DNA of 64,000 nt from an uncultured Candidatus Saccharibacteria bacterium (GCA_964402815.1 CAYODP010000001.1:415-64414); one strand, 5' to 3'. Positions 1,077-63,817 are shown, numbered from the stretch's first letter. The notes: a model not told the origin generated them from the sequence alone. Made by a program: numbers and translations.

Positions 1077-1634
1077 TTATGGCAGAAGATTTGGCAAAGA
1101 ATCCATAACTTTGAAAAACTGTGGGTAGATTTGCGTGTGTGGCACGATTAAGTCGGAATGACGGTCTTGCACCATGTGACGCAGTTCTTCGAGTGGAACA
1201 TATTTTAAATCGGAAATTTCAGATTTTTGAAAAGTAAAATCTTTTAATTGGCGGTCAGCCAAAATAATAAAAACTTCATTAAACGAATTGTTAATAAAAT
1301 CGGGTGCGGTGCGGACACTTGATTGGTCGGTGCCGACGTAGATTAATATGTCGCGCGGTTGCAAATGAAAATCTAACTCTTCCTCAAGCTCGCGAAAAAC
1401 TGTAGACATCACATCGTCACCGGCCATAACGTGACCGCCACAAGAAAAATCCCAGAAATTTGGCCAACTGTCTTTGGTGGCACAACGCTTTTGCAAAAGA
1501 ACTTCTCGCTGCTTATTGACTAAGAAAACTTCGATGGCGCGATGCCAGTCGCCATCGCGGTGGACTTCGCGACGTAATTTAGTGCGGCCAGTTTTATGTC
1601 CATGCCCGTCGAGTACATCAAAATATTCATCCAT
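1077..1634 (-). CDS. NUDIX hydrolase (IDI-like subfamily)
   Basis: Nudix box GGHVMAGDDVMSTVFRELEEEL; N-terminal DVLD...R..VH..G.WHR pattern. Confidence 0.88.
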   Translation of the reverse strand: MDEYFDVLDGHGHKTGRTKLRREVHRDGDWHRAIEVFLVNKQREVLLQKRCATKDSWPNFWDFSCGGHVMAGDDVMSTVFRELEEELDFHLQPRDILIYVGTDQSSVRTAPDFINNSFNEVFIILADRQLKDFTFQKSEISDLKYVPLEELRHMVQDRHSDLIVPHTQIYPQFFKVMDSLPNLLP

Positions 1635-4886: not shown

Positions 4887-5614
4887 TAGCTACTAGCTCC
4901 GTTGCGTAGCAAGGCGGCATAAAGCTGAGCGTAGATGTCGTCAAGCTCTTTGTTGAGCTGCTGGAGCGTGGCGTCGTTCTCGAGCGCCATAATGACGAAC
5001 TTGAGCGGGGCGTTGGTAGTGCCACAAATATCGCTGCGGGATTCACCATAGGCGAGCTCGCCTGGGATGGTGAGCTGACGCACACCGCCGAGCTTCATAC
5101 CGACAACGCCTTGGTTCCAGCCTTCTATTAAGCTAGAAGTGACGGCGAGTGGAGCGTTGAGACCGGTAGGAGTGGCTTTATCGGTATCTTCTTTGGCATA
5201 ACTAAAGGAAGAATCGAAGATGCTGCCATCGGCGCACCAACCAATATAGTAGGCGGAATAATCGGTATCGCCTTCGCCAAGCTGGCGGCCAGTGCCGACT
5301 TTGAGATCTTCGCTTTTGAGTTTTTCACTGTTGGCGCGGGCGGCGTTGTAGCTTTTGACCTGAGAATCTTTGTAGCCGGACATTTCTTTGAAGTATTTGT
5401 CGGACAATGGCTTAGCGGCGGCTTGTAATTCCTCGTTCTTAGCGTCATATTGAGAGCGAAGGTCGGCAATGAGAGCTTCACTGTTAGCTTTTGAGCTATT
5501 GCTACTCATGACGATGAACAGATAAGTAAAGATGGTCGAACCAAGCAAGAGAATTGCGACAATGATAATGACAATTCGTTGCCAAGGGCTAGTTTTTAGT
5601 TGTTTCTCGTCCAT
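4886..5614 (-). CDS. FKBP-type peptidyl-prolyl isomerase with N-terminal membrane anchor
   Basis: DGSIFDSS, LIEGWNQGVVGMKLGGVRQLTIPGELAYG; N-terminal TM helix. Confidence 0.88.
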   Translation of the reverse strand: MDEKQLKTSPWQRIVIIIVAILLLGSTIFTYLFIVMSSNSSKANSEALIADLRSQYDAKNEELQAAAKPLSDKYFKEMSGYKDSQVKSYNAARANSEKLKSEDLKVGTGRQLGEGDTDYSAYYIGWCADGSIFDSSFSYAKEDTDKATPTGLNAPLAVTSSLIEGWNQGVVGMKLGGVRQLTIPGELAYGESRSDICGTTNAPLKFVIMALENDATLQQLNKELDDIYAQLYAALLRNGASS

Positions 5615-5634
5615 AATAAATCTCCTTAACTATG

Positions 5635-8148
5635 TTATACCACCATTGCACCGATTTTGGCTGCCTCCGCTGTAATTTTCTCCATTATAGCAGAAATCTG
5701 CGCAGAATCCAAGGTGCGTTCCGGGCTAGAAAATTTGAGACGGAAAGAGAGATTTTTGGTCTGGTCGTCGGCTTGATAGATGGAGAGCGGAGTAAGCTGA
5801 TAAATTAAATCGGCTTGGCTAAGGGTAGTATCGATGGCATTATCAATGCGGCCAAAGGGAAAATCATGAGCGACTTTGAGCGTAATGTCGCGCTCGACGA
5901 ATGGAAACCTAGAAACATGCACATCGACCGAGATGGTCGGCTCAAGGTCTACGATTTGGTCTAAGTTAAACTCGGCCGCAGCAATAGTCGATTCGAGCTT
6001 AAATTTGCGACGCGTAGTAGCTTTCAGTTCACCAAAAGCACCAATAGATTGATTATTTACAAGAACTTCGGCGGAACGGACAGGCTCGAGATAGGGGTAA
6101 AGTTTGGCAGCCTCAGAGCCTGGAGCCAGCTGACGATATTCGATGTCGATTTTCAGACCGTTCTCGAAGAGGGCGAAGACTTTGCTCTTGAGGTCGTAAT
6201 AATCGCCCAAGCAAACGATACCAAGATGCGTGCTGAGAGCCGGCGTGCCTTCAGAGGTAAGCCCAGCTTGGCGGCTGGTGACTTGGTTCATTTCGTAGAG
6301 TGTGAAGTTTTTGTGGCCAGATTTAACGTTTTCACGAATCTTGTCGAGGAGACTCGGGACGATTTGCTGGCGGAAACATTGCAGCTCCGGAGAAATAGAA
6401 TTGACGATTTCGTAACTATTGGCAGGGTCTTGGCCGGAGCGCTCAAGGAGACTCTTACTGACGAAAGAATAAGTCAGAACCTCGTGCATAGCAAGGCGAT
6501 TAGAGAGAATGTTGCGTAGATTATGTTTCAGCCGCAACAAAGGCGCGATTTCGGTGCCCTGGAAGGCGCCCTGCGGCAGGCTAAGCGCAATATTGTCATA
6601 ACCGAGCAAGCGACCGACTTCTTCAATAATATCTTCCTTAAGATGAATATCAGTGCGCCAAACTGGTGCTGTGACGCTCAGAGAAGCGTTCTGAGGGGTG
6701 TTAGCGCTAGAGCTTGCTATGACCGCACTTTGTTTAGAAACGGCCGCTACGGGCTTAGAAACGACCTTAAAACCGACATTTTCGAGGGTCTGAGCGATAA
6801 TTTCAGGGGAATAGGCGGTACCAAGCAGGGTATTTATCTCTAATGTTGTAATTTTTACAACATTTTCTGGCTGTTTCCCTGGCCATTCATCGGCTACGGC
6901 GAGGAGCTGGCGGTTAGGGCCAAGCTCCGCCACGGTTTCGGCGAGCACAGGGTAAGTCATAGCGGCGGGCTGGCCTTTGGTAAAGCGAGTAATGGCTTCG
7001 GAGAAAATACCGTGCGTCATCTGGGTCTTACGAAGGTTGTAGAGCGAGAAAGTAGCGCTTTCGAGGATGACGCGGGTAGTGCTGGCGTCAATTTCGGTGT
7101 TTTTGCCGCCCATGGCGCCGGCCAGAGCCACAGGAATATCATTGCTAGTAATAAGAATATCTGCGGGCTGGCAGGTGATAGTTTTGCCATCGAGAAGCTG
7201 AATTTGCTCACCTTCACGTGCGGCGCGCACGATAATCTTAGGCTGATTAGTGCCGCCAACCTGTACAAATTTATCGTAATCAAAAGCATGCAACGGTTGC
7301 CCAGTGCGCAACATAATCATATTAGTAAGGTCAACCATCGGGCTGATGGCGCGCATACCAGCTTTGGCAAGAAAAACGTCGCCATAATAAGTCAGATAAT
7401 GATTTTTACTGGCTTTCAATAAATCACACTCGACGACGGCGCAACTATAGCGAGGGCAAAGCTCAGCGTCGGCAATCTTAACACTGATAGGCAAATCATG
7501 GGCTTGCGCTAACTCTGGCCAAAACGGTTCCTCGAACGGAACACCGAGAATCCCGGCGACTTCGCGTGCAAAACCGATGAGACCGAAACAATCGGGGCGA
7601 TGGGTGAGAGATTTGTTCTCGACATCGAGAATAATGTCGTTGAGTTCAAAAACATCAGCAAAAGCAGCGCCAGGCTGAGCCATTTTGGGGTTAATCTCGG
7701 CAATGCCTTCGTGGTCGTCACCGAGGTCAAGCTCATCCACCGCCGCCAACATACCGTTGGACTCGTAGCCTTGAAGCTTGCGTACGCCGAGTTTGAAATT
7801 CTCATTACCATAAGTCTGCGGAACGATACTACCAGGGGTAATCCAGACCGCTAGCATGCCGGTATGGACATTGGGCGCGCCACAAACGACTTGCACGAGA
7901 CCATTCTCAAGCTGATGATAAGCGGAATTGTGCTCGCCGGCGTCAATCTGGCAAAGTGACAGGTGGGTATCGGGGATTTTTTCAGCAGAGACAACTTTAA
8001 CAATGTAGATTCCCTGGTACTTGGGAGAAAGGTCAATCGCCTCCTCAATCTCAACTAGGCGCGAGCCGATGAGCGTGATTAAATCTTGGTCAGAGACGTC
8101 ACTGGGGACGGAAACATATTTTTTGATTTCATTGAGTGAAATTAACAT
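5635..8148 (-). CDS. pheT: Phenylalanyl-tRNA synthetase beta subunit
   Basis: VVCGAPN, NKSLTHRPDCFGLIGFARE, GQPLHAFD, RTDIHLKEDIIEEVGRLLGY, C-terminal FDX-ACB (RDITL...RTL). Confidence 0.97.
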   Translation of the reverse strand: MLISLNEIKKYVSVPSDVSDQDLITLIGSRLVEIEEAIDLSPKYQGIYIVKVVSAEKIPDTHLSLCQIDAGEHNSAYHQLENGLVQVVCGAPNVHTGMLAVWITPGSIVPQTYGNENFKLGVRKLQGYESNGMLAAVDELDLGDDHEGIAEINPKMAQPGAAFADVFELNDIILDVENKSLTHRPDCFGLIGFAREVAGILGVPFEEPFWPELAQAHDLPISVKIADAELCPRYSCAVVECDLLKASKNHYLTYYGDVFLAKAGMRAISPMVDLTNMIMLRTGQPLHAFDYDKFVQVGGTNQPKIIVRAAREGEQIQLLDGKTITCQPADILITSNDIPVALAGAMGGKNTEIDASTTRVILESATFSLYNLRKTQMTHGIFSEAITRFTKGQPAAMTYPVLAETVAELGPNRQLLAVADEWPGKQPENVVKITTLEINTLLGTAYSPEIIAQTLENVGFKVVSKPVAAVSKQSAVIASSSANTPQNASLSVTAPVWRTDIHLKEDIIEEVGRLLGYDNIALSLPQGAFQGTEIAPLLRLKHNLRNILSNRLAMHEVLTYSFVSKSLLERSGQDPANSYEIVNSISPELQCFRQQIVPSLLDKIRENVKSGHKNFTLYEMNQVTSRQAGLTSEGTPALSTHLGIVCLGDYYDLKSKVFALFENGLKIDIEYRQLAPGSEAAKLYPYLEPVRSAEVLVNNQSIGAFGELKATTRRKFKLESTIAAAEFNLDQIVDLEPTISVDVHVSRFPFVERDITLKVAHDFPFGRIDNAIDTTLSQADLIYQLTPLSIYQADDQTKNLSFRLKFSSPERTLDSAQISAIMEKITAEAAKIGAMVV

Positions 8149-12984: not shown

Positions 12985-14403
12985 CTAGGCTTTCGGGAAA
13001 AGTGGCTGAGCGGGAGGAGTAATCTCGGCAGCGGTGAAGATGGACTTAATCTGAGCGGAAGTCTCGGGCAGGAATACGCTAAGGAGGAAGTTGGCGCGCA
13101 AAAGGTCTTCGGCGAGGCTACGGAGGACGGTTTGGGCTTGCTCAGTCTGGCCGAGTTTGGCGAGTTCCCAAGGTTTGGTTTCGTCGATGCGGCGATTGAG
13201 AGTTTGGATTTTGCTCCAAACGTAATCGAGCGCTTTGGAGAATTCGAATTGATTCATTAGCTGGCAGAACTCGGTAGGCAGAGCTTCATCTACCGTGACG
13301 CCGGGGACTTGATTTTTCTTACACAAAGTGGCGAGGCGCTGGACAAGGTTGCCGAGGTCGTTGGCAAGCTCGTTGTTGTAAGCGGTGGCGTATTTCTCGT
13401 CGGTGAAATCGGAGTCAGCAAAAGAGTCGATATGACGAAGGAAGAAATAGCGGAAGGCGGGCAAGCCCTTACGGTCGAGCACTTCCATCGGGTCGATGAC
13501 GTTGCCGAGGCTCTTACTCATCTTCTGGCCATTAGACAGAACGTGGCCGTGGGCAACGATGTTTTGCGGCAGAGCGAGACCGATACCGAGCAAGATAGCT
13601 GGCCAAGTAATCGCATGGAAGCGAAGGATGTCTTTGCCGACGAACTGAGCGGTGGCGGGCCAAAACTCGGCGAGCTCGGCGCCGTCGGGGTAGCCGAGGA
13701 CGCTAATATAATTAGAGAGGGCGTCAATCCAGACGTACATGACTTGGTCTTCGTCACCGGGAACGGGAACGCCCCAAGACAACTGCTTGCGCGGGCGAGA
13801 AATAGAAATATCGGGAGTGTCATCGAGCAAGCGAAGCATTTCTTGCTTGCGGAAGTCGGGAGTGATTTTAATCGTGTCAGACTCGATAGCACGACGAATC
13901 TGGTCTTTAAAGTCGCTCATGCGCAGATAATAATTCTTCTCGGAGAGACGCTGGTAAGGGCGCTGGTGGTCGGGACAGGTGCCGTGATTCTCGGCGTATT
14001 CTTTCTCGGTGACGAAACGCTCGCAGCCCTCGCAATACCAGCCATCGTACTCGGCGCTATAAATATGCGGCTCGAGCTTTTGCCAGACGGCTTGGCAAGC
14101 GCGAACATGGTTAGGGTCGGTAGTGCGGACAAAATCGGTGTAAGAAATATCGAGGCGGTCGATAAACTGGCGGAACTTGTCCGAGTTCTCGGCGACATAT
14201 TGCTCGACGGGCAGATGATTCTTAGCGGCGGTACTGAAGACTTTGTTACCGTGCTCGTCGGTACCGACTTGGAAGCGCACTTCATCGCCCAGCAGACGAC
14301 GGTAGCGAGCATAAGTATCGGCCAAAAGATAATCCATGGCGTGCCCGATATGAGGGTTACCATTGACATAAGGTATAGCAGTACAGATATAAACTTTTGA
14401 CAT
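12985..14403 (-). CDS. metG: Methionyl-tRNA synthetase (short form, no tRNA-binding appendix)
   Basis: YVNGNPHIGH, GTDEHG, YVWIDAL, KDILRFH, KMSKSLGNV. Confidence 0.97.
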   Translation of the reverse strand: MSKVYICTAIPYVNGNPHIGHAMDYLLADTYARYRRLLGDEVRFQVGTDEHGNKVFSTAAKNHLPVEQYVAENSDKFRQFIDRLDISYTDFVRTTDPNHVRACQAVWQKLEPHIYSAEYDGWYCEGCERFVTEKEYAENHGTCPDHQRPYQRLSEKNYYLRMSDFKDQIRRAIESDTIKITPDFRKQEMLRLLDDTPDISISRPRKQLSWGVPVPGDEDQVMYVWIDALSNYISVLGYPDGAELAEFWPATAQFVGKDILRFHAITWPAILLGIGLALPQNIVAHGHVLSNGQKMSKSLGNVIDPMEVLDRKGLPAFRYFFLRHIDSFADSDFTDEKYATAYNNELANDLGNLVQRLATLCKKNQVPGVTVDEALPTEFCQLMNQFEFSKALDYVWSKIQTLNRRIDETKPWELAKLGQTEQAQTVLRSLAEDLLRANFLLSVFLPETSAQIKSIFTAAEITPPAQPLFPKA

Positions 14404-14472
14404 GATAGGTTAATTATAACACAAAAATAGAGGTTCGGACAAAACGAGCGAACTTTTAAAAAAGAAAAATGC

Positions 14473-14501
14473 TTGTAAAGCGCGAGAGGGTTGTGTATAA
14501 T
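14473..14501 (+). promoter_or_regulatory. Sigma70-type promoter
   Basis: TTGTAA-17 nt-TATAAT, with TGTG immediately before the -10. Confidence 0.75.
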
Positions 14502-14506
14502 GAAAT

Positions 14507-14703
14507 TGTCTAGTTTCATCATTGAGTATGCCGCGTAGTTGCGCAGTTACATAACTGGTCGGTTACGTGTTCGAGTTTTTGTGATGAGCTTTGATTATGT
14601 GTGTCAGAAACGGCACCGCAAGCAATGCAGATGATCAGGGCTCACGTGACTCGTAGCTTACGTAATTCGTGATTGCGCATCAGCTCATTGATGGGACTAG
14701 ACA
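14507..14703 (+). ncRNA. Rod-shaped structured RNA (6S-like RNA or attenuator leader)
   Basis: The 5' segment TGTCTAGTTTCATCATTGAG pairs with the 3' segment CTCATTGATGGGACTAGACA. Nested stems are TGCGCAGTTAC/GTGATTGCGCA, GTTACGT/ACGTAAT, CGAGTT/GACTCG and TGAGCTTTGATTAT/ATGATCAGGGCTCA, with G:U pairs. It lies between a promoter and a terminator and has no ORF. Confidence 0.65.
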
Positions 14704-14722
14704 CCCTTGCGGTGTCGTTTTT
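14700..14722 (+). terminator. Intrinsic terminator or attenuator
   Basis: GACACC-CTTGC-GGTGTC-GTTTTT. Confidence 0.7.
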
Positions 14723-14782
14723 ATTACTTATGGATTTTACGGCACCTAAAAGGTTTGTGCTATTAACCAAAAGGAGGGCGCC

Positions 14783-17404
14783 ATGCAACGCAAAAAGAGA
14801 CGGTCAACTTTAACAGGACTTCTGCATAGTATTCCAATATATAGTAATAGAAGTCTTAGTCTTATTAACCATAATGGTGATAAGCATAATAAGTTATCTC
14901 ACGTTTCTAATTGTAGTATTCCTCTAGTTTGCATGGCGCTCCTGCTTTTGGGAGGAGTAGTAAGTATTAATCCAGCACTATTTGAGAATCAGAACAGTTA
15001 TGCAGTAGAAGTGGGGCAAGGTACTAACGATAATAGTACAGATAGTGAAGCTGGAATTGCTGCACAATCGATGGCAAGTCCGTCTATCAAGATGGAAGTT
15101 TCGGCAGGAACGGATGGATTTGGTAAAGGTGTGAGCGAACAAGTATCGACGGCGCCGGGAGCTTCGACAGCTTATCGCAGCCATAATATATCAGTGACAG
15201 GACATAATATTACACATTACCAGTTAACGATTTCTGGAGAAAACTTAACGAGTACGGGAGCAGGCGCAACGGAGATTGGCGGTGCGAACGGGGCGACGGG
15301 GGCGACAATGCCAACGAACACCTGGGGCTATGCTTGGGACGACCAAGACAAAGAAGTCTCGGAAATGACTTATAACACAATGACCAGTGAAGGGCAGAGT
15401 TTAGAAAATGTCGATGTACCAGAAGGAAACGGAGCAGACCACGGGTATGATGTGGACTTAAAGAAAAAGCTAGTGTTTGGAGCAAACTTTGGCGCGGATG
15501 CGCAGTCGGGTGTCTATGCGTCTAATGTTACCGTGTCGTTGACTTCAACACCACTAACACTCAGCCAAACTTGGAAGAGGCCCGCCACTATCAATAGTGA
15601 CCAATACACGGAAACACATATTGAAGCCGGGATTGACACGATGCAGGCGATTGATACGGCATGGGCAACACAATATTGTAGTGGAATGGGAACAAACGGT
15701 ACTAGCCCGGCCGGAATCAAGGTAGGAGATGTACTCGACCTGAGAGATGCGCGCGATGGCGAAGTATACCGGATTGTAAAGCTCGAAGACGGTAACTGTT
15801 GGATGCAGCAAAACCTACGGCTACAAGCACCAGAAGGCGGAAGAAACTTGACCAGTGCAGACTCTGATGTGACGAGCGACTGGCTAATGCCAGAAACGCT
15901 GGTGGCGAAGAGTGGGGAGACGACAGTGGCGGGATGGAGCAGTACTGGCGAGGTGCCGAGCTCAGCGTATTACAATAATCCGGATTATGGAGTTAATTAT
16001 AACTGGATGGCCGCGACAGCTGGCGGAGCAATGGCTAACGACGAGGCGACGAATAGTGTTTGCCCTAGGGGGTGGAAGTTGCCAACAGTATTTGAAGAAA
16101 CTGGGTCACTTCAGTACTTGACTAGTCAAATAACTTGGGCTAGCGACATTGGCTGGGCTCGACTCATGGCGCTTCCGTACGATTTTCGCAATTCCCTTTG
16201 GATGAATGCGGACGGCACATCCATCGACGGAGGGACTGACTGGGGAGCTTGGTGGTCACGTACAATATATAATGGGCAGATATATACATTGGCCATCGTT
16301 AATAATAGTTCTGACCTATTTTTTAACGTTACAGAGTTTGCTACGGGCACACCTGTTCGCTGCGTCGCTATATCAGGTTACAACGTAATCTATGATGCGA
16401 ACGGCGGGACGAATGCACCAGCGCCGCAAATCAAGAACTCGACTGCCGATACTGAACAATTTACGATTAGTGGTCAGGGTAGCATGACAAACTCGGGCTA
16501 CACTTTCTTAGGCTGGAGTACCGATAGTAATGCGACAGAGGCCGATAGCAACTATGCTCCGGGTAAGACTGTAACCATACAAAAGGCAAAGCCAGGATTA
16601 ACACTCTACGCAGTATGGGGACAAAACTGGTCGAGCGGAGTTGCCACGGGTATCACGAGGATGCAGCAAGCTAACAGCACTTGGGCGAGTGATTATTGCG
16701 GTAACGCTTCGGGAACTGGTGCCGACGCAGTAAGTGCGAAAGGCATTAAGGTGGGCGATACGCTAGACCTTAAAGATTCGCGTGACGGCCAGACTTACCG
16801 AATTGTGAAACTCGAGGACGGGAATTGTTGGATGCAGGAGAACTTAAGGTTAGTTGCGCCCAAGGGCGGTAAGCTGTTAACGAGTGCAGATTCAGATGTG
16901 TCGAACTGGACGATGCCGGAAACTGTAGCCGTGTCGAAAACGGATGTCTCTAAGTGGGTAGACAGTAACGATAAACCCTACTCTGCTTACGCAAGCGATG
17001 GGGCGAATGAGGTTTATTATAACTGGACGGCTGCAACGGCTACCGATGACTCTAGCAAAGTTACTAGTGGTAGCGTCAGCTCTAGCATATGTCCGAGCGG
17101 ATGGAAGTTACCAACTGGCAATACTGACGGGCAGTTCCAAACACTATTTACTGCTACAGGAATTACGAACAATACGGCTGGAATTAGTGAGTTCAGAAAC
17201 CTGCCCTACAATTTTACTTATACAGGATTAGTAGACTCTAGTATGTATTATAATGGGGCAGAATCTACATGGGGGGCGTGGTGGTCAAATATGGCAAAAG
17301 GTACTAGCGAGGCGTACATAGCAAACGTCTCTTCTAGCAGTTTCGGTTCAGCGTCGATGGGGCGCTATGTGGGAGCTCCAGTGCGCTGCGTCGCTACACA
17401 TTAA
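14783..17404 (+). CDS. Large surface protein: signal/TM, WxL/pilin-like module, FISUMP domain, Listeria-Bacteroides (InlB B/Flg_new) repeat, second FISUMP domain
   Basis: Two copies of DGNCWMQ.NLRL...YNW.AAT...CP.GWKLPT...WW...VRCV; YDANGGT...GYTFLGWST...LTLYAVW repeat between them; AGGAGG RBS. Confidence 0.88.
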   Translation: MQRKKRRSTLTGLLHSIPIYSNRSLSLINHNGDKHNKLSHVSNCSIPLVCMALLLLGGVVSINPALFENQNSYAVEVGQGTNDNSTDSEAGIAAQSMASPSIKMEVSAGTDGFGKGVSEQVSTAPGASTAYRSHNISVTGHNITHYQLTISGENLTSTGAGATEIGGANGATGATMPTNTWGYAWDDQDKEVSEMTYNTMTSEGQSLENVDVPEGNGADHGYDVDLKKKLVFGANFGADAQSGVYASNVTVSLTSTPLTLSQTWKRPATINSDQYTETHIEAGIDTMQAIDTAWATQYCSGMGTNGTSPAGIKVGDVLDLRDARDGEVYRIVKLEDGNCWMQQNLRLQAPEGGRNLTSADSDVTSDWLMPETLVAKSGETTVAGWSSTGEVPSSAYYNNPDYGVNYNWMAATAGGAMANDEATNSVCPRGWKLPTVFEETGSLQYLTSQITWASDIGWARLMALPYDFRNSLWMNADGTSIDGGTDWGAWWSRTIYNGQIYTLAIVNNSSDLFFNVTEFATGTPVRCVAISGYNVIYDANGGTNAPAPQIKNSTADTEQFTISGQGSMTNSGYTFLGWSTDSNATEADSNYAPGKTVTIQKAKPGLTLYAVWGQNWSSGVATGITRMQQANSTWASDYCGNASGTGADAVSAKGIKVGDTLDLKDSRDGQTYRIVKLEDGNCWMQENLRLVAPKGGKLLTSADSDVSNWTMPETVAVSKTDVSKWVDSNDKPYSAYASDGANEVYYNWTAATATDDSSKVTSGSVSSSICPSGWKLPTGNTDGQFQTLFTATGITNNTAGISEFRNLPYNFTYTGLVDSSMYYNGAESTWGAWWSNMAKGTSEAYIANVSSSSFGSASMGRYVGAPVRCVATH

Positions 17405-63699: not shown

Positions 63700-63708
63700 A
63701 ACGTATAA

Positions 63709-63817
63709 TTTGGCACCTTGCTAGTTTCCCGCTTGGGGCAGTATAATCGCCGCGACTGGGCTTGACTTCTGTGTTCGGAATGTAAACAGGTATTTCCCCA
63801 GCGCTATGGGCACCAAG
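63709..63817 (-). rRNA. rrf: 5S ribosomal RNA
   Basis: Minus strand CTTGGTGCCCATAGCGCTGGGGAAATACCTG...ATTCCGAACACAGAAGTCAAGC...ACTAGCAAGGTGCCAA; conserved CCGAAC and AGAAG..AAGC; ends pair. Confidence 0.92.

Follow-up and report, generated by a model that had tools for sequence, protein, structure and literature searches.

In a 64,000-nt stretch of DNA from an uncultured Candidatus Saccharibacteria bacterium (CAYODP010000001.1:415-64414; hereafter the window, with positions counted from its first letter), a rod-shaped RNA (14508-14722, plus strand) is predicted upstream of a surface-protein gene. Our reading is that this RNA is the 5' leader of the surface-protein gene and one copy of a large family of cis-acting attenuators in Saccharibacteria, in which a conserved segment in the apical loop of the rod (X) pairs with a complementary segment in the terminator (X') and clamps the tail in favour of termination. 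We give this reading, with the clamp as the favoured polarity, an even chance of being correct. The same layout was found in more than 110 independent loci from Saccharibacteria genomes and metagenomes, where the rod as well as the apex-tail helix shows compensatory changes, which places the architecture beyond chance. The initial annotation of the region had suggested that homologs be collected and examined for covariation, and both were obtained.

The rod and its family

The initial annotation had described a consensus promoter followed by a self-complementary rod with a 20-bp closing stem, a terminator, and an ATG 60 nt further on, and all of these elements were located. A consensus scan placed a sigma-70-type promoter with the -35 hexamer TTGTAA at 14473-14478 and the -10 hexamer TATAAT at 14496-14501 (17-nt spacer, 10/12 consensus matches over both hexamers). 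The predicted transcription start, 12 nt from the first base of the -10 hexamer, is the G at 14508, the first nucleotide of the closing stem. The rod (14508-14702) comprises ~195 nt with ~75 bp in its minimum free energy (MFE) fold, and consists of the closing stem (14508-14527 with 14683-14702, 19/20 positions paired), a 5'-side hairpin (14544-14557), and distal stems reaching up to 14600-14604/14625-14629. The plus strand folded at -84.3 kcal/mol, more stably than any of 200 dinucleotide shuffles (z = -5.44), whereas the reverse complement reached only -56.6 kcal/mol (z = -2.49). Together with 17 G:U pairs, this bears out the earlier remark that the rod is not a perfect DNA palindrome. The rod stems are present as described; their count, given as five, hinges on how interrupted stems are treated and is immaterial to the conclusion. 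The apical loop (14605-14624, ~20 nt) is unpaired in the MFE fold except for a 2-bp mini-stem and carries segment X, ACGGCACCGCAAG (14610-14622), with GAAA just before it.

Past the rod, a terminator scan identified the local hairpin GACACC-CUUGC-GGUGUC (14700-14716), followed by a G and by a run of five T (14718-14722) where a short transcript is expected to end; the ATG of the downstream gene (14783) lies 60 nt past this U-run. An overlap between the 5' arm of the terminator and the closing strand of the rod had been noted previously, and consists of GAC, with which the closing stem ends and the terminator begins. At -7.6 kcal/mol the local hairpin is weak, and forcing it costs the rod 3 bp. 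The RNA is isoenergetic with the rod fully closed (-84.1 kcal/mol) and with the local terminator formed at the expense of these 3 bp (-84.0 kcal/mol). Both in the window (14700-14705) and across the family, A-C-C always continues past the last closing-stem pair (G1:C) and resembles a tRNA acceptor end; these bases are probably just the terminator 5' arm.

A protein query with methionyl-tRNA synthetase (MetRS) returned 80 loci with identities of 61-84%, every one of them in a Saccharibacteria genome. A plain sequence search with the window RNA over these 80 loci gave just three to four partial matches; by the conserved 3' tail motif, ten of the loci were found to share the layout. A combined apex and tail pattern retrieved at least 120 loci from a metagenome collection, and ~113 of those listed are true members. 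In viral contigs, one further member was present among 17 mostly chance matches. These search patterns fixed part of the apex and tail, where conservation is partly by construction, and our covariation claims rest on positions outside the search pattern and on the rod. The window copy was recovered by a profile built from 41 other members (14598-14722, E = 2e-6), and likewise (27 bits, E = 0.002) by a covariance model that drew on 12 other members and excluded it. The same covariance model found 89 copies in the metagenome loci. So far the family is specific to Saccharibacteria.

Members are 100-215 nt long, typically 115-150 nt, and the 215-nt window copy is unusually long-rodded. Some contigs carry more than one copy: loci L128 and L176 share the contig R21__coassemble_95, and L180 has two copies 4 kb apart (5542-5664, plus strand, and 1467-1609, minus strand). 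The two L180 copies are of different subtypes, with different 5' ends and apex-tail sequences, so a single genome can hold more than one apex-tail pairing specificity. In another locus (L001:3532-3714, minus strand), an insertion of ~183 bp lies between the leader terminator and the ORF (open reading frame); it has ~27-bp terminal inverted repeats (GTTTTACATCTCTATAATTCTACTAA ... TTAGCAGAATTACTAGAGATGTAAAAC) and looks like a miniature inverted-repeat transposable element (MITE).

In 97 relatives a -10 box of the form TGnTAnnWT, usually TGnTAtAAT, is found at a fixed distance from the first paired base. When +1 was set from the promoter, i.e. 12 nt after the start of the -10 box, the first 9 nt paired with the closing strand at 7.85/9 positions, versus ~3.2/9 at other offsets. 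Since this level of pairing is reached solely at the 12-nt offset, the predicted start of the leader coincides with the outermost pair of the closing stem.

Rod sequences are wholly different between copies and the rod itself is always present. All 99 distinct rods folded with z < -4.3 (median z = -7.4), and 96% were more stable as plus-strand RNA than as the reverse complement, by a median of 9.5 kcal/mol. For the common 125-nt type, 33/33 modelled rod pairs vary on both sides, and 88.8% of the alignment cells are paired versus 35-41% with the partner slid; the alignment was fitted to the covariance model, which biases it in favour of the modelled structure, yet the difference is very large. 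These results bear on the explanation that the element acts at the DNA level, as a MITE, a recombination site or an operator palindrome. Such an explanation would suit a repeated element with inverted repeats that lies beside variable genes, including restriction-modification genes. It leaves unexplained why unrelated rods keep their pairing and why G:U pairs are conserved in the rod as well as in the apex-tail helix. Strand asymmetry and covariation contradict a DNA-level repeat, which we regard as very improbable.

The 125-nt type folds as a three-way junction with P1 of 12-14 bp, P2 of 9-10 bp, P3 as a small hairpin with a U-rich loop, and P4 of 7-8 bp bearing a 24-27-nt loop. The P3 hairpin lies 25 ± 4 nt from the base of the rod, a distance constant over all subtypes. 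In the window copy the corresponding hairpin (14544-14557) is not U-rich and lies 35 nt from the rod base, and a separate UUUUU is found at 14576-14580 (region 14574-14582). The U-rich P3 loop, the A-run before the apex and the 3' U-run might form a U-A-U triple. The apical loop is the best-conserved sequence of the family, A(C/U)GGCAYCRYR..., with an A-rich run ahead of it. Every member has a hairpin and U-run between promoter and ORF, and the family tail reads RCACC-loop-GYGGUGYC-R-UUUUU. The local hairpin has a median stability of -7.7 kcal/mol across the family.

Pairing between the apical loop and the terminator

The initial annotation had pointed to complementarity between the apical loop and the terminator. 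It is real and longer than reported: X' (CUUGCGGUGUCGU, 14706-14718, plus strand) covers the terminator loop, the 3' arm, the G and the first U, and forms 13 contiguous pairs with X (14610-14622). When the A-rich run before the apex and the U-run are included, the helix in the window extends to 17 bp with a duplex energy of -27 kcal/mol. GGUGUC (GGUGYC in the family) can pair either in X:X' or in the local hairpin, not in both.

Among 73 distinct members and over 14 proposed pairs, 90.7% of the X:X' cells are paired versus 30-51% with the partner slid. Pairs 3-10 were fixed by the search pattern and the others are informative. Pair 2, formed by the base before GGC and the base after GGUGYC and lying outside the search pattern, is C-G in 34 members, U-A in 30, and unpaired in 9. 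Pair 11 occurs as A-U (57), G-C (7) and U-A (1), and pair 12 as A-U (43), C-G (4), G-C (4) and U-A (4). Compensatory changes were seen at pairs 2, 9, 11 and 12. Whole segments have also changed in concert, with GCAUCACUUGG facing CCAAGUGGUGC in L139 and GCAUCAUGAGG facing CCUCGUGGUGC in L002. RNAalifold, run on a naive alignment, chose the apex-tail helix as the consensus. Conserved U-G and G-U pairs in this helix would be mismatches in a DNA palindrome and A-C on the other strand, which points to pairing in the plus-strand RNA. As judged from these alignments, the apex-tail helix is under selection.

The X:X' duplex is worth -20 to -27 kcal/mol and reaches the U-run. In 10 members the local hairpin is cut to 4 bp (-4.2 kcal/mol), and there X:X' is undiminished at -24.3 kcal/mol. 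The local hairpin is maintained as well, as shown by covariation between the Y of GGUGYC and the base that precedes CACC (A-U 70, G-C 33, A/C 10).

If the rod were bent like a paperclip to bring its apex to its base, the two arms should lengthen together. No joint rise was found (r = -0.49); the proximal arm is constant at ~25 nt while the distal arm varies from 13 to 46 nt. A fold-back fits the 125-nt type, in which the ~25-nt proximal arm roughly equals the ~15-nt distal arm plus an 11-bp helix. In the window RNA, X:X' costs 15.7 kcal/mol without a pseudoknot, yet the duplex itself is worth -27 kcal/mol, which leaves two possibilities: either the apex reaches the tail as a pseudoknot, or the rod and X:X' states exclude each other.

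The constant proximal arm, roughly two helical turns across subtypes, is also what might be expected of an element for RNase III cleavage or 5'-end protection, where the duplex would set mRNA processing or stability and the complementary segments would manage the exposed end. RNase III-cleaved leader hairpins are known from pnp and rnc, as are 5'-terminal stabiliser hairpins, and all of these share with the present leaders a long near-perfect duplex at the extreme 5' end of the mRNA. The duplex here begins exactly at the predicted +1; moreover, the local hairpin unpairs the 5'-terminal 3 nt, and X:X' or pairing of X' with a downstream motif (X2, below) lets them re-pair. In the known hairpins there is no conserved apical loop that could pair with a downstream terminator, and a role in processing leaves both the sequence conservation of the apical loop and the U-run unexplained. 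Such a role, which we consider improbable, would be compatible with an attenuator rather than an alternative to it.

Downstream genes and the proposed switch

The window copy occupies the intergenic region between the MetRS gene (12985-14403, minus strand) and an 873-codon ORF (14783-17404, plus strand). By the ORF list and Pfam, the 873-aa product of the latter has an N-terminal hydrophobic segment, a Listeria-Bacteroides repeat and a Fib_succ_major domain; its ATG at 14783 is preceded by the Shine-Dalgarno sequence AAGGAGGG at 14771-14778 (together 14771-14785). The divergent MetRS gene has its own promoter-like site at 14442-14413 (minus strand; TTGTCC-18-TATAAT with an upstream TG), and the rod RNA is therefore not a MetRS leader.

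ORF linkage was assessed in 84 non-redundant members with enough flanking sequence. A same-strand ORF starts at a median of 40 nt past the U-run, within 100 nt in 75/84 members and nearly always at 20-90 nt. The spacers contain a Shine-Dalgarno sequence in 63/84 members and an extended -10 box in just 6/84. With an ORF close by on the same strand and a spacer promoter rare, the element is a leader and not a free-standing gene. Expression of the downstream ORF would thus depend on read-through, as predicted from this arrangement, which is less certain for the window copy with its weak -10-like box (below). Promoter with predicted +1, hairpin with U-run, same-strand ORF and a competing conserved pairing, which are the features by which an attenuator is recognised in silico, were all found, and the rod RNA probably controls the expression of the gene behind it.

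Among 83 proteins encoded behind leaders, 28 have a Fib_succ_major domain, as in the window gene, and 64 have an N-terminal hydrophobic segment. The others include four Tsp45I-type restriction enzymes and three EcoRI-type methylases; OmpA-family proteins, a type IV secretion pilin and many small proteins, some of them membrane proteins, are also found behind leaders. An attenuator or riboswitch of a new class had been proposed in the initial annotation for control of an adhesin gene. The conserved and covarying unit of promoter, leader, terminator and ORF, which matches no known family, upholds the first part of this proposal as far as sequence goes; the family is not adhesin-specific.

Many spacers contain a further copy of the apex motif, X2, located 4-26 nt past the U-run and complementary to the tail. 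In the window it is ACGGCACC (14739-14746, plus strand), with a tail:X2 duplex of -16.8 kcal/mol. X2 reaches 14-16 bp in several members, e.g. L114, covaries with the tail in L139, and is also present in the spacers of L131, L136 and L180. It is individually significant in 17/118 spacers, and the 8-mer is found at fixed offsets in many more. Pairing of X2 with the ribosome-binding site (RBS) or start codon, which then resembles the tail, is predicted in ~19/68 leaders (for example GGCACCGU...ACGGUG in L181) but not for the window copy.

We propose the following mechanism. Transcription would start from the strong promoter at G14508, and the nascent RNA would zip into a long rod whose apical loop displays the conserved 11-14-nt segment X. 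The weak terminator hairpin would emerge past the rod, its 5' arm having to take 2-3 bp from the closing stem, with the U-run next, and X', comprising the terminator loop, 3' arm and first U, would be available to pair with X. The outcome would be either a short terminated RNA or read-through into a promoterless ORF a few tens of nt downstream. By default X:X' would act as a clamp that extends the helix into the U-tract and makes the weak terminator efficient, leaving the gene OFF. A factor occupying the X loop would release the tail and termination would fail; X2 could then capture X', and in about a quarter of members this capture would free the RBS. Anatomy, family membership, covariation in the rod and in X:X', gene linkage and energetics come directly from the analysis; the start site, termination itself, the polarity of the switch and the trans-acting factor are all predicted from sequence.

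The clamp is favoured on three grounds. X:X' continues past the local stem into the U-tract, with the A-run opposite the remaining U's, which is the signature of a terminator stem. The local hairpin is feeble alone and must take pairs from the closing stem. Finally, X:X' is kept where the local hairpin is crippled, which is hard to explain if its sole job were to oppose that hairpin.

The same leader could work with the opposite polarity, as the initial annotation had it, in which case the local hairpin would terminate and the apical loop would capture the 3' arm as an antiterminator, possibly stabilised by a ligand or protein in the manner of an ON riboswitch with a pseudoknot. We take this antiterminator as a serious rival, although we find it rather doubtful. 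The two pairings compete for GGUGUC, and the 125-nt type has a typical aptamer layout, i.e. a three-way junction in which junction and loop bases are conserved, with a pseudoknot that overlaps the expression platform. The covariation between the base before CACC and the Y of GGUGYC further indicates that the local hairpin is itself under selection. An antiterminator aimed at the 3' arm, however, cannot form ahead of the terminator. X:X' moreover extends over the base that follows the stem and over the first U, with the A-run facing the rest of the U-tract, and so resembles a terminator stem; it is at full strength where the local hairpin has only 4 bp, and the controlled genes share no metabolic theme.

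A further serious rival, which we nonetheless judge unlikely, is a stand-alone stable small RNA (sRNA) with both ends buried that acts in trans, for example by pairing its X' with X or X2 of nascent paralogous transcripts, while the downstream gene is merely read through. In favour of such an RNA, a promoter and a terminator of its own frame the element, X:X' ties up the 3' end, first U included, X' has partners both upstream (X) and downstream (X2), and X and X' are near-identical among paralogs with unrelated rods. A comparable arrangement is found in phage P4 immunity, where seqB of the CI RNA pairs with seqA and seqC and causes premature termination. There, as here, a segment of a short leader-derived RNA has an upstream and a downstream partner and is linked to termination; unlike P4 CI RNA, the present leaders are chromosomal and multi-locus, lack sequence similarity to it, and show no evidence of processing or trans action. 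Trans action needs no copy before each gene, but nearly every copy is found 20-90 nt ahead of an ORF. Nor are X-like and X'-like sites enriched elsewhere in the window (3 vs. 0.95 expected, and 45 vs. 42 expected), and the 5S rRNA and tRNA of the window contain no X/X' match.

Transcript data touch on the same question. In wastewater metatranscriptomes several contigs share a 30-nt tail and then diverge into different ORFs, with DNA carry-over possible, a sharing that would also suit an sRNA. With the tail of L174 (1614-1645), four or five contigs per metatranscriptome in runs X69 and X71 share the tail and enter different ORFs. The shared tails show that many paralogous or orthologous leaders coexist in one community, and the contigs may represent the pattern expected of read-through transcripts of paralogs.

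Several observations weigh against the clamped attenuator that we favour, or against parts of it. With the rod intact, X:X' is a pseudoknot whose 3-6-nt linker must span the whole rod, and forming it without a pseudoknot costs 15.7 kcal/mol in the window RNA. As arm lengths do not co-vary, a fold-back pseudoknot is plausible just for the 125-nt type and not obviously for long rods such as the window copy (arms of 35 and 46 nt). Conservation of X and X' is stronger at the level of sequence than of freely covarying pairs, and could equally mark a protein site. The local hairpin and X:X' both abut the U-run, and by sequence alone either could be the terminating helix. The window X2 is an 8-mer only (p = 0.38 taken alone). 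No signal or common metabolic theme is suggested by the downstream genes, which are heterogeneous. A weak extended -10-like box, TGCTATTAA (14761-14769), lies ~20 nt upstream of the ATG and might supply the surface-protein gene with a weak promoter of its own. As for transcripts, the window copy was found in no RNA run, with zero reads in four large RNA runs bearing the same organism label. Metatranscriptome contigs of relatives (L104, L174) are too shallow, and possibly too contaminated with DNA, for ends to be defined; such contigs both stop near the terminator and run across it.

Relation to known RNAs and meaning for Saccharibacteria

Rfam had been suggested as a check in the initial annotation, and returned no 6S or riboswitch match for the window copy. 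At the gathering score, 5S rRNA and tRNAs were the only Rfam 15 matches in the whole window and in 12 member loci; within the window the sole family was 5S rRNA (63708-63817, minus strand, 72 bits). At E ≤ 10, the window copy and a member of the common type (L122) gave nothing relevant, with two chance matches. SRP (signal recognition particle) RNA, RNase P, tmRNA, T-box and hammerhead were judged by eye; the conserved core of none is present and none was returned by Rfam. A search of the literature on small or regulatory RNAs of Saccharibacteria, the Candidate Phyla Radiation (CPR) and TM7x found no description of the leader family, and in Rfam and the literature combined we found no structured regulatory RNA described for Saccharibacteria/Patescibacteria.

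The first suggestion for the window copy, a divergent 6S-like RNA, i.e. a rod that sequesters RNA polymerase, did not hold up and is hardly credible in our view. The window copy does resemble 6S RNA (RF00013, RF01685 and relatives) in its size of ~200 nt, its rod shape, and its own promoter and terminator. The region 14350-14850, however, gave no Rfam 6S match at E ≤ 10, and the two-sided central bubble is lacking, with small internal loops and one 5'-side hairpin in both MFE and centroid folds. Whereas 6S RNA is a housekeeping gene of roughly constant size and independent of ORFs, members of the leader family range from 100 to 215 nt, occur in more than one copy on some contigs, and hold a fixed position before ORFs.

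The T-box shares with these leaders a long variable stem and a terminator, and a 9-nt motif of the leaders resembles part of the T-box (GGCACCGCA vs. GGNACCGCG). Otherwise they differ: there is no RF00230 hit at E ≤ 10, no specifier loop or bulged antiterminator, and the motif pairs fully with the tail. Further, the downstream genes are not aminoacyl-tRNA synthetases, the MetRS gene being on the other strand with its own promoter.

The closest likeness is to attenuators and riboswitch platforms, which also comprise a promoter, a structured leader, a hairpin with U-run and an ORF, with a conserved long-range pairing that vies with the terminator hairpin for the same strand and with several copies before different genes. 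Pseudoknots overlap the terminator in the ZTP and fluoride riboswitches, and in guanidine-IV (mepA) a hairpin loop kisses the terminator region. The leaders differ from attenuators in that the competing segment pairs with the terminator loop and 3' arm into the U-tract rather than with the 5' arm, that the sensor sits at the tip of a freely variable rod of ~45-90 bp, and that the leader starts exactly at the predicted +1. As regards riboswitches, an aptamer-like fold is present (three-way junction, conserved loop and junction bases, 33/33 pairs covarying); an association of the genes with one ligand or pathway is not, and the family has no common metabolic gene theme and no Rfam model match. 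The RNA is apparently an undescribed cis-regulatory attenuator leader with an unusual loop-to-terminator architecture.

Saccharibacteria/Patescibacteria, tiny epibionts of other bacteria, rely on their surface proteins, and to our knowledge almost nothing is known about their gene regulation. A more far-reaching proposal, which we put forward tentatively, is that the leaders are a new RNA sensor specific to Saccharibacteria, perhaps shared with other CPR bacteria, whose apical loop would fold onto its own terminator and be read by a ligand, a protein or an RNA. The sensor might jointly set read-through and, via X2/RBS hairpins, translation of a regulon of surface-protein and restriction-modification genes, and would in effect be the main surface switch of these epibionts.

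An abundant and covarying leader family thus precedes envelope-protein and restriction-modification genes in Saccharibacteria, with an architecture unlike that of textbook attenuators. Annotators gain a family to model at loci that now appear as blank intergenic DNA. If the leader is a switch, its RNA mechanism would be new and open to dissection, the genetic tools for cultivated strains would gain a native regulatory part, and the surface remodelling of these epibionts would become easier to approach.

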